From Bacilli bacterium (GTDB taxonomy: Bacteria; Bacillota_I; Bacilli_A; RFN20; CAG-631), in NCBI GenBank assembly GCA_900754115.1, contig CAAEBM010000052.1:10716-74715 (forward strand): a stretch of DNA of 64,000 nucleotides, in the 5' to 3' direction. The notes below the pieces were generated by a model. It saw only the letters and a program-made list of their open reading frames with translations. It was not told the origin of the DNA and did not search any database. Position numbers and translations under genes: made by a program. This document shows positions 9,441 to 10,745 of this stretch, piece by piece. Positions within the stretch are counted from its first letter, which is position 1. Each line of letters starts with the position of its first letter.

Positions 9441-9480
9441 GTTTCCCAAAAATGTAAAAAATTTGAATTTGGGAAATGAA
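9441..9480. repeat. palindromic element tttcccaaa-N20-tttgggaaatg immediately upstream of the AAA-ATPase gene (left boundary repeat)
   Basis: Imperfect inverted repeat TTTCCCAAA / TTTGGGAAA. A second copy of the same element lies immediately downstream of the gene (10701..10745). Confidence 0.6.
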
Positions 9481-9498
9481 GATGCATAATACTAATAG

Positions 9499-10698
9499 GT
9501 GAAAACTATGAAACTAATCGACAGAAAAATGTATTTAAATAAAATGATTGATGTTATTGGTACTCCAGACATTAAAGTTATTACTGGTGTTAAAAGGAGT
9601 GGAAAATCTAAATTATTAGAATCATTTATTAATTATTTAATATCGTCAGATAAAGATTGCAATATCATCCATATTGATTTTAATTTAACCGATAACGAGA
9701 ATTTATTAGAATATCATGCATTAGAAAAATTTATTGAATCTAAATATGTTAAAAATGTAAACAACTATATTTTGATTGATGAAGTTCAAATGTGTGAGAA
9801 CTTTGAAAAAGCAATAAATAGTCTTCATGCAAAGGAAAAATATGATATTTATATAACTGGTTCAAATGCATTTCTATTAAGTTCTGATTTAGCAACGCTT
9901 TTTACAGGTAGAAATTTTGAAATAAAAGTTTATCCGTTTTCTTTTAAAGAATATTTTGAATATTATAATTTAAATGATCAATATGTTGCTTTTGATAGTT
10001 ATATTAAAGAAGGCGGTATGGCTGGTTCATATCTTTATAAAAACATTGATGATAAATTAGATTACATAAAAAATGTTTATGAAACTTTAATTGTTAGAGA
10101 TATAAAGGATAAATATAGAATTAAATATCCTGTTTTATTAGATAAAATTACTAATTATTTAATTGATAATATTTCTAATCTTACTTCAACTAGAAAAATA
10201 GCAGATGTTTTAACAAATAATAAAGAAAATATTAATCATAAAACTGTTGGAAAATATATTGAATATTTATGTAATGCTTTTGCTTTTTATAAATTTAAAA
10301 GATACGATATCAATGGAAAAAAATATTTAGCATCTTCAGATAAATATTACTTAGTTGATCATTCCTTTAAATATGCTAAACTGGGTACTAAAAATATGGA
10401 TTATGGAAGAATCTTAGAAAATATAGTAGCTATGGAATTGTTAAGAAGAGGATATGAAGTATATGTTGGTGTTTTGTATAAAAAAGAAATTGATTTTGTT
10501 GCAATAAAAAGAAATGAAAAATTTTATATTCAAGTTTCTGATAATATTTCAAATCAAGAAACTTTCGACAGAGAAGTTTCATCGCTTTTAAAAATTAAAG
10601 ATGCATATCCTAAAATTTTAATTTCTAAAACTAGAAATGAAGAATATCAATATGAGGGTGTTAAAATAATAGATATTGCTGATTGGTTATTAAAATGA
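9499..10698 (+). CDS. AAA+ ATPase of the AAA_14/DUF4143 type ('ATP-binding protein')
   Basis: Walker A GVKRSGKS and Walker B ILIDEV. The C-terminal domain architecture is typical of DUF4143 proteins. The gene is visibly more AT-rich than its flanks. Confidence 0.8.
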   Translation: MKTMKLIDRKMYLNKMIDVIGTPDIKVITGVKRSGKSKLLESFINYLISSDKDCNIIHIDFNLTDNENLLEYHALEKFIESKYVKNVNNYILIDEVQMCENFEKAINSLHAKEKYDIYITGSNAFLLSSDLATLFTGRNFEIKVYPFSFKEYFEYYNLNDQYVAFDSYIKEGGMAGSYLYKNIDDKLDYIKNVYETLIVRDIKDKYRIKYPVLLDKITNYLIDNISNLTSTRKIADVLTNNKENINHKTVGKYIEYLCNAFAFYKFKRYDINGKKYLASSDKYYLVDHSFKYAKLGTKNMDYGRILENIVAMELLRRGYEVYVGVLYKKEIDFVAIKRNEKFYIQVSDNISNQETFDREVSSLLKIKDAYPKILISKTRNEEYQYEGVKIIDIADWLLK

Positions 10699-10700
10699 TT

Positions 10701-10745
10701 CTATTTCCCAAAAAAGCTAAAATTACTTCATTGGGAAATGAAAAC
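10701..10745. repeat. second copy of the palindromic element (tttcccaaaaaagctaaaattacttcattgggaaatg), right boundary of the ATPase cassette
   Basis: Direct repeat of the 9441..9480 element, with the same TTTCCCAAA ... TTGGGAAATGAA structure. Confidence 0.6.

Follow-up and report, generated by a model that had tools for sequence, protein, structure and literature searches.

The locus and its repeat element

The stretch of DNA analysed here (the window: 64,000 nt, positions 10,716 to 74,715 of contig CAAEBM010000052.1 from the Bacilli bacterium assembly GCA_900754115.1; coordinates below are those of the window) carries an ATPase gene of the PDC-S01 type with a copy of one palindromic element at either end. 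The gene (9508..10698, + strand, 396 aa) encodes an AAA_14 ATPase domain (Pfam PF13173, E = 2.3e-31), a predicted winged helix and a DUF4143 domain of the PD-(D/E)xK class (PF13635, E = 1.7e-17). Its product is a member of PDC-S01, with the defining domain pair and a full-length match to the PADLOC profile PDLC04787 (E = 3e-142, 472 bits, residues 1–396 on profile positions 6–408 of 412). Translation likely starts at ATG 9508 rather than GTG 9499, because a ribosome-binding site, AGGTGA, lies at 9497–9502 and the homologues begin with MKLI. PDC-S01 is a single-gene phage-defence candidate that joins an ATPase to a PD-(D/E)xK-class domain; it is experimentally unvalidated and is reported to rank among the commonest candidates in prokaryotes, bacteria and archaea alike, and in rumen genomes (PMC12988326, PMC13356809). 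DUF4143 is included in a survey of the PD-(D/E)xK superfamily (PMC3424549). The literature found, search coverage being incomplete, describes no cis-element, regulation or cassette structure for DUF4143 or PDC-S01.

A first-pass annotation of the window had described an AT-rich AAA/DUF4143 gene bracketed by two copies of one element, and this description holds. The gene has a GC content of 21%–23%, compared with 28%–31% in both flanks, and the pattern TTTCCCAA-N19-TTGGGAAATGAA is found at 9442–9480 and 10704–10742, with no further site in the window. The looser gapped pattern TTTCCCAAA-N(15-30)-TTGGGAAA likewise has only two matches (9442–9476 and 10704–10738) and none in 100 shuffles, and the 12-mer TTGGGAAATGAA is matched exactly at 9469–9480 and 10731–10742 only. 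Both copies are imperfect palindromes of equal span (39–41 bp) with 9-nt arms. The upstream copy (9439..9479, + strand, centre 9459) has the perfect arms TTTCCCAAA (9442–9450) and TTTGGGAAA (9468–9476), reading TTTCCCAAA-N17-TTTGGGAAA over 9442–9476, and ends 28 nt 5′ of the ATG. The downstream copy (10701..10741, + strand, centre 10721) has the arms ATTTCCCAA (10703–10711) and TTGGGAAAT (10731–10739), reads TTTCCCAA-N19-TTGGGAAA over 10704–10738 and starts 5 nt past the stop codon (10696–10698); these distances replace the 19 nt and 2 nt given earlier.

The upstream copy coincides with a predicted sigma-70-type promoter of the ATPase gene (9463..9490, + strand), in which a promoter scan matched the consensus with a −35 box TTGAAT (9463–9468), a 16-nt spacer and a −10 box CATAAT (9485–9490). 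The right arm of the palindrome occupies the spacer; relative to the predicted promoter, the dyad is centred near −39, with the right arm at about −32 to −19 and the left arm at about −59 to −46. In the downstream copy the −35 box is lost, and the tail of the conserved unit that follows it (10742..10762, + strand) contains what resembles a −10 remnant, AGATGATGATTAAG (compare AGATGCATAATAC upstream).

With the ATPase as query, no PDB chain was matched by sequence at E ≤ 1. An AlphaFold2 model built on 45 homologues (predicted local distance difference test, pLDDT, of 75 for the best model and about 54 for the other four) comprises an AAA+ core with a two-helix insert (residues 61–78), a lid, a winged helix-turn-helix (208–282) and a C-terminal alpha/beta domain. 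The top Foldseek matches were archaeal Orc1/Cdc6 proteins on origin DNA (2qby_B, 2v1u_A), with ORC, clamp loaders and NLR/STAND proteins ranking next; TM-scores were low throughout (0.26–0.27 for Orc1/Cdc6), as a flexible multidomain model would give. The model thus predicts an Orc1/Cdc6-like fold (AAA+ and winged helix) plus a nuclease domain, a likeness in fold only, given the lack of a PDB sequence match. One metagenome assembly (L011, 8367–8445, corresponding to about 10266–10273 of the window) has its ATPase reading frame interrupted by 79 nt of unrelated, GC-richer sequence, leaving open reading frames (ORFs) of 271 and 156 aa; this represents either a disrupted allele or an assembly chimera.

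Recurrence and covariation of the palindrome arms

Beyond the window, we examined about 33 distinct loci carrying ATPase homologues at 57%–76% identity, thousands of homologues being in existence. They were found in Lachnospiraceae, Oscillospiraceae, Bacilli, Spirochaetes, Bacteroidales and Coriobacteriaceae and on viral or integrative and conjugative element (ICE)-like contigs. A palindrome of the same span and geometry lies upstream of the gene in nearly all of them, centred 40–116 nt before the start codon, with the family consensus tTCTATTnnnCAAAA-N13-TTTTGnnnAATAGAt. The overlap with a promoter recurs as well, as far as consensus matches show: a −35-like TTGAnn is situated at centre +4 to +9 in 23 of the 33 loci, and a −10-like hexamer, often TATAAT, follows it after 16–17 nt in 29. 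The register of the predicted promoter therefore appears to be the geometry of an operator, with the upstream palindrome falling outside the predicted transcript.

The arms differ in sequence between loci and retain their symmetry. Across 37 copies they take roughly the form CTATTnnnCAAAA-N13-TTTTGnnnAATAG, and the core arm pairs observed include TTCCC/GGGAA, TTACC/GGTAA, TAGCC/GGCTA, TTCGC/GCGAA, TACGC/GCGTA, TACGA/TCGTA and TTTCAA/TTGAAA. A covariation test over these copies and 14 position pairs, with column shuffles and a slid partner as controls, placed 86.3% of cells in the pairing class, compared with 75.6% after shuffling and 37%–52% with the slid partner. Double changes were found in 53 cells against 20.6 expected, a number reached in none of 500 shuffles, and one-sided changes were virtually absent at the core arm positions. 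Such compensatory change is what would be expected of a dyad operator.

Arm type follows the protein tree and not host taxonomy: one arm type spans phyla, and one family holds different arm types. The site is essentially limited to the ATPase gene family in the examined loci, and in the window it occurs only at the ATPase gene. A scan of metagenomes with the family pattern gave seven matches, three of them at or near related ATPase genes, which are too few to judge occurrence away from the gene. Protein columns that track the half-site class fall in the AAA+ insert (61, 65, 71, 73 and 81) and in the winged helix (208, 209, 233–242 and 269). This association is suggestive only, being confounded by phylogeny and involving columns that are also variable surface positions.

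Several loci carry additional or variant copies. L031 has tandem AAA_14/DUF4143 paralogues (3421–4688 and 4916–6236), each with its own upstream palindrome (TTTCGGCTAA...TTAGCCGAAA and TATTAGCCAAAA...TTTTGGCTAATA), the two sharing a TTAGCC half-site in opposite relative orientation. In L037 (4877–4957), extra copies of the element, full or partial, are stacked directly upstream of the functional one, one of them with an inverted centre, and stacked extra copies also occur about 90 nt before the start codon in the Bacteroidales loci L040–L049, where a right-arm-like TTTTCGGTAATAG belongs to another arm type. A palindrome of the same style, TCTATTACGCAAAA-N13-TTTTGCGTAATAGA, precedes genes of a related family (ATPase_2/AAA_14 matches) in L077 (1454–1492) and L080 (1409–1447), which hints that this type of operator extends beyond PDC-S01 proper. 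Repeats that differ in sequence from the element, direct or inverted, surround the promoters of the distant paralogues in L061 and L063 (40%–42% identity), 100 nt upstream of the gene; in L063, TATAAAAGTAATTTCAAACT occurs twice, flanking TATAAT, and a 39-nt palindrome lies 27 nt past the stop codon.

The downstream copy

A copy of the element starting 5–25 nt after the stop codon is present in roughly one third of the distinct loci, belonging to several clades of the protein tree (the window, L021, L022, L031, L050, L056, L062, L071, L072, L083 and L085–L087, with a more degenerate copy in L090). Its arm type agrees with that of the upstream copy of the same locus. L050 and L056 each have two nearly identical copies. 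In the six pairs that are not nearly identical, the −35 box has mostly been lost, and 98 of 108 comparisons at the 18 core arm positions (91%) are matches, as opposed to 56 of 114 (49%) at the 19 central positions (arms versus centre, Fisher p = 5e-12). Since an unselected relic should decay evenly and the arms have nevertheless outlasted the centre, sequence comparison indicates that the 3′ arms are probably under selection, though not for promoter function.

Cassette boundaries and mobility

Among loci with unrelated contexts, nucleotide homology is confined to the segment between the outer edges of the two palindromes, or ends at the stop codon where the 3′ copy is missing. Relative to start and stop codon, respectively, the limits are −67 and +68 for L071 and the window (90% identity), −78 and +45 for L021 and L022 (90%), −73 and +41 for L023 and L056 (84%), and −69 and −5 for L039 and L041 (82%). 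The homology between the window and L071 thus extends +66/+68 past the last codon and stops in the tail at 10742..10762. Hence, the unit formed by the ATPase gene and its repeats recurs at unrelated loci, as the cassette-like behaviour suggested by the first-pass annotation would require, and conserved synteny, which that annotation had regarded as an argument to the contrary, was not seen: related species lack the gene at the syntenic locus.

Consistent with the earlier statement that the window has no recombinase, a Pfam scan of the 3.85 kb islet in which it resides detected no recombinase or integrase. The proposed mobilization in trans fits the location of two homologous cassettes. That of L085 adjoins a large-terminase gene (terL) on a prophage-like contig, and that of L083 adjoins an ArdC/LPD28 polyvalent protein typical of conjugative elements, in an ICE-like setting; given these neighbours, the cassettes likely hitch-hike on mobile elements. 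Of the 286 positions in the nuclease-domain profile, the terminase ORF of L085 (1392–2642) matches only the first 124, and the cassette may have entered terL itself or the DNA directly behind it.

No consistent target-site duplication abuts the palindromes in nine two-copy loci. The k-mers shared between flanks (7–9-mers in some loci) remain within the cross-locus chance background, the exceptions being three long host duplications far from the palindromes. Although the outer arms could be taken for terminal inverted repeats of a transposon or a miniature inverted-repeat transposable element, this candidate was rejected on the lack of a consistent duplication at these nine loci.

Other known types of element fit no better. 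An attC-like site, one of the identities offered by the first-pass annotation, has to be abandoned: the arms CTATTnnnCAAAA and TTTTGnnnAATAG of the 37 copies contain no GTTRRRY core (RYYYAAC ... GTTRRRY), no integron is present and the islet lacks an integrase. An attC array around promoter-less ORFs is equally inapplicable, the constant copy being the 5′ one, which carries the promoter, and about two thirds of the loci having no 3′ copy. Modules of the pdif/Xer type were rejected on geometry, which here amounts to arms of about 13 nt separated by 13 nt. A pdif or dif site is 28 bp long, with two 11-bp arms, a 6-bp spacer and alternating orientation. The other earlier proposal, a terminator or anti-terminator, does not survive either: the stem has 8–9 bp with three G-C pairs, the loop is 17–19 nt long and TGAA stands in place of a T-run. 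The terminator scan passes over the palindrome and flags 10862–10884. An Rfam search of 8800–11100 found no family at the gathering threshold, only two sub-threshold chance matches (E = 0.3).

A putative autoregulatory operator

We favour, with a probability of about 0.55, the view that the element is a self-encoded, promoter-embedded operator serving autoregulation, in which the 3′ copy plays an auxiliary part, either in looping or as a roadblock; neither this nor the large direct duplication described below was recognized in the first-pass annotation. The repeats would be a 39–41 bp dyad-symmetric protein-binding site of an autonomous one-gene PDC-S01 cassette. The upstream copy would be built into a sigma-70-type promoter, the −35 box straddling its centre and right arm and the right arm filling the spacer, so that a bound dimer would occlude the promoter. 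The downstream copy, having kept its arms and not the promoter, would most likely be an auxiliary site for the same protein, which either supports looping or insulates the cassette by acting as a roadblock. Because the two arms change together from cassette to cassette, whatever the taxonomy of the host, the binder would most likely be a product of the cassette itself, namely the ATPase, contacting DNA through the Orc1/Cdc6-like winged helix and AAA+ insert of the model, since the cassette encodes one protein only and this protein has a predicted DNA-binding architecture of the Orc1/Cdc6 kind. Binding of the ATPase to its own operator would then autoregulate a potentially toxic nuclease. We infer that a protein binds the sites, which protein this is, that it represses the gene and that looping takes place, and regard a cassette-own binder as the best explanation because symmetry is kept, the promoter register is fixed, variation follows the cassette and, in the 3′ copies, the arms alone are conserved. 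The more distant paralogues, which likewise have repeats overlapping promoters, support an operator.

Several considerations weigh against this interpretation. A distance of 27 bp between half-site centres (about 2.6 helical turns) is unusual for a simple dimeric repressor, and a centre at about −39 is also compatible with an activator. The promoter itself is a predicted one, based on a consensus match, and its overlap with the element is not universal: L027, L028 and L033 have the asymmetric centre in reverse and the element at a greater distance upstream. The 3′ copy, missing from two thirds of the loci, is dispensable. Physical linkage of the element to the gene would produce the agreement between arm type and protein tree under any hypothesis, and the association between residues and half-sites is not corrected for phylogeny. 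The structure model is moderate, its pLDDT of 75 being attained by one of five models, the rest being at about 54.

According to the principal competing explanation, a mobile cassette would end or recombine at the palindromes, whose outer arms would act as 13-nt terminal inverted repeats at which the DNA is cut and joined, either by the cassette's own AAA+/PD-(D/E)xK protein or by a recombinase supplied in trans, as with attC or pdif. The coincidence of the homology limits with the outer palindrome edges (L071/window, L021/L022 and L023/L056), the absence of the ATPase gene from syntenic relatives, the additional copies (stacked, incomplete or inverted) that precede the functional one in L037 and in the Bacteroidales loci, the tandem paralogues of L031, each with its own palindrome, and the nuclease-class domain of the protein all speak for it. 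However, about two thirds of the loci have the 5′ copy only, no consistent target-site duplication accompanies the palindromes, with the short common k-mers falling within chance, and the last insertion in the window is bounded elsewhere (9200 and 10810), with 242 nt of extra DNA. In addition, the promoter register accounts for conservation of the 5′ copy without mobility, a selected functional unit would give the same homology boundaries once its neutral flanks had diverged or been replaced, and, to our knowledge, no transposase relies solely on a PD-(D/E)xK domain, and we therefore judge mobile ends to be unlikely. A combined version, in which the cassette is a minimal self-mobilizing or self-recognizing element whose own protein binds both palindromes for repression as well as for excision, copying or integration, would explain why homology ends exactly at the palindromes and could explain the long host-DNA duplications around some segments; its chances seem slim. 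That the 3′ copy is instead a functionless relic, either the promoter and operator of a lost tandem cassette or a by-product of insertion and duplication, with the 5′ copy alone being of consequence, would suit its dispensability in most loci, the decayed −10-like sequence beyond it, the existence of tandem cassettes (L031) and the near-identical copies of L050 and L056, as if recently duplicated. Such a relic should not, however, have retained palindromic core arms at 91% identity next to a centre at 49% (p = 5e-12) in six diverged pairs, nor should it recur in separate protein-tree clades, always 5–25 nt past the stop codon, and we deem it rather improbable.

The remaining explanations dispense with a binder encoded by the cassette. 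If the element acted as a nucleic-acid hairpin, forming a 3′ stem-loop in the mRNA (a stabilizer or weak terminator) and a DNA cruciform or single-stranded DNA hairpin at the 5′ end, base pairing would predict compensatory arm changes, and both copies indeed fold somewhat more stably than shuffled sequences (z = −2.4 for the upstream copy on the + strand and −3.0 for the downstream copy on the − strand). Yet the stem of 8–9 bp is A/T-rich, the loop of 17–19 nt is long, there is no U-tract and the terminator scan leaves the element unflagged, with a proper terminator hairpin located downstream at 10862–10884; moreover, the upstream copy would be untranscribed given the predicted promoter, almost no G-U-type intermediates occur at the core positions and no Rfam family is matched, all of which renders a hairpin very unlikely. 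Least plausible of all is a global regulator of the host as the binder in place of the cassette's protein. A promoter-embedded position is common for host repressors, but the same arm type is found across phyla and differing types within one family, and the site is essentially confined to the ATPase family, occurring at this single gene in 64 kb.

Relation to known systems

By analogy, the element would work most like the C-boxes of restriction-modification systems or the operators of other autoregulated defence and toxin units. As with C proteins and their C-boxes and with autoregulated toxin–antitoxin or defence operons, a mobile and potentially toxic nuclease unit carries a palindromic operator in its own promoter, the sequence of which diversifies along with the unit. 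In those systems, however, regulation falls to a small separate helix-turn-helix protein that acts on short operators set close together, whereas in the PDC-S01 cassette the effector itself would regulate, the half-sites are 27 bp apart and 1.26 kb separates the first site from a second one at the 3′ end. A promoter operator combined with a second, promoter-less copy downstream is also known from looping operators such as lac O1/O2, gal OE/OI and deo; here, by contrast, looping is only proposed, the distal site has a precise position just past the stop codon, and an AAA+ protein would be the binder. With archaeal Orc1/Cdc6, the cassette would share an AAA+ core with helical insert, lid and winged helix, as modelled, and dyad-containing cognate DNA beside the protein's own gene. 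It differs in the extra C-terminal nuclease-class domain, in sites that overlap a promoter, with nothing suggesting a replication origin, and in the protein itself, with no sequence similarity to any PDB chain detected and fold TM-scores of only 0.26–0.27.

The PDC-S01 system of PADLOC is the same with respect to the full-length hidden Markov model match and the domain pair, but is defined by protein only; the gene studied here adjoins a second candidate (PDC-M42) in an accessory islet. Integron attC cassettes and pdif modules likewise have one gene between imperfect palindromes, the sequence of which varies with symmetry kept, and they too occur in different contexts with no recombinase nearby. 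They are set apart by the GTTRRRY core, IntI, attI or Xer-type 11-6-11 site, none of which is found here, and by the fact that the present element is mainly a 5′ one with a promoter, most PDC-S01 cassettes having a single copy. Phage 'morons' resemble the cassette in being self-contained transcription units between unrelated genes, as in L085, where it adjoins terL, but are not defined by a conserved operator or by repeats at both ends.

If correctly interpreted, the covarying site is the probable cognate DNA ligand for the Orc1/Cdc6-like module of a widespread uncharacterized defence candidate, and the operator offers a likely explanation for how a potentially toxic ATPase–nuclease is restrained. 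The palindromes also provide a sequence signature that delimits a transferable unit, and they call for caution in annotation, since a cargo gene can be bracketed by 'hairpin repeats' that are operators and not recombination sites.

The accessory islet and its neighbourhood

The cassette resides in a 3.85 kb accessory islet (8929..12781; 3,853 bases) between the LD-carboxypeptidase and secDF genes. The islet is absent from syntenic relatives: two related lineages share more than 12 flanking genes in synteny (identities of 70% and 58% for the peptidase and of 78% and 60% for SecDF), and in both of them less than 70 nt separates the LD-carboxypeptidase gene from the convergent secDF gene, with no ATPase gene in between. 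The 6 kb around the locus are 100% identical in about 18 contigs from human-gut metagenomes, and the rpoB product of the window clusters at ≥90% with 'Firmicutes bacterium CAG:631' and Candidatus Caccosoma. A scan of genomes, with a single representative for each species, gave no match at 100% to the ATPase of the window; either the species is unrepresented there or its representative lacks the gene.

Besides the cassette, the islet contains a decayed NADAR fragment, an orphan stretch and a three-gene PDC-M42 candidate system. The fragment (8932..9199, − strand) is a partial duplicate of the 3′ part of the NADAR gene and its terminator, with two internal deletions and a frameshift, and forms the left copy of a large, imperfect direct duplication; the right copy (10811..11360, − strand) takes in the 3′ flank and the greater part of the intact NADAR gene. 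The two are 90%–96% identical and lie on either side of the segment with the ATPase gene. Deletions of 206 nt, at a 9-nt microhomology (CATCGTTGG), and of 62 nt have shortened the left copy. The boundaries of the duplication imply that the segment last inserted was 9200–10810, which extends 242 nt beyond the left edge of the cassette and 48 nt beyond its right edge. The orphan stretch (9200..9424, + strand) is part of this inserted segment and lies outside the conserved cassette. It consists of an open frame of about 80 codons with no start codon, ending at 9424, 17 nt 5′ of the upstream palindrome, and is probably a remnant of the donor context. For the ORF fragment at 9182–9421, Pfam gave no hit, a search of 5.8 billion proteins found no homologue, and nothing in the fetched loci matched. 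A search of a plasmid collection with the inserted segment returned short matches only, at 71%–74% identity, to other 'ATP-binding protein' genes.

A comparable imperfect host duplication flanks the cassette segment of L038 (3269–3454 versus 5131–5316; 186 nt, 89%), and the cassette segment of L071 is probably also flanked by a long host duplication; none was present in 24 other loci. One possible origin of such duplications is a single homologous crossover of a circular fragment. The L071 contig has 25-nt identical ends, which, by de Bruijn-graph logic, more likely reflect a direct repeat of about 35 nt than a circle.

Downstream of the cassette, the hairpin with T-runs and G+C at 10862..10884, a second copy of which lies at 8984–9004, is likely a bidirectional terminator common to the ATPase gene and the convergent NADAR operon. 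This operon constitutes the PDC-M42 candidate defence system (10940..12494, − strand), composed of a DUF3990 gene (11841–12494), a gene for a 142-aa protein of unknown function (11416–11844) and the NADAR gene (10940–11419), with matches to the PADLOC PDC-M42 A, B and C profiles at E = 3e-122, 3e-78 and 2e-76, respectively. Its DUF3990 protein and NADAR hydrolase look like an ADP-ribosylation toxin/antidote pair.

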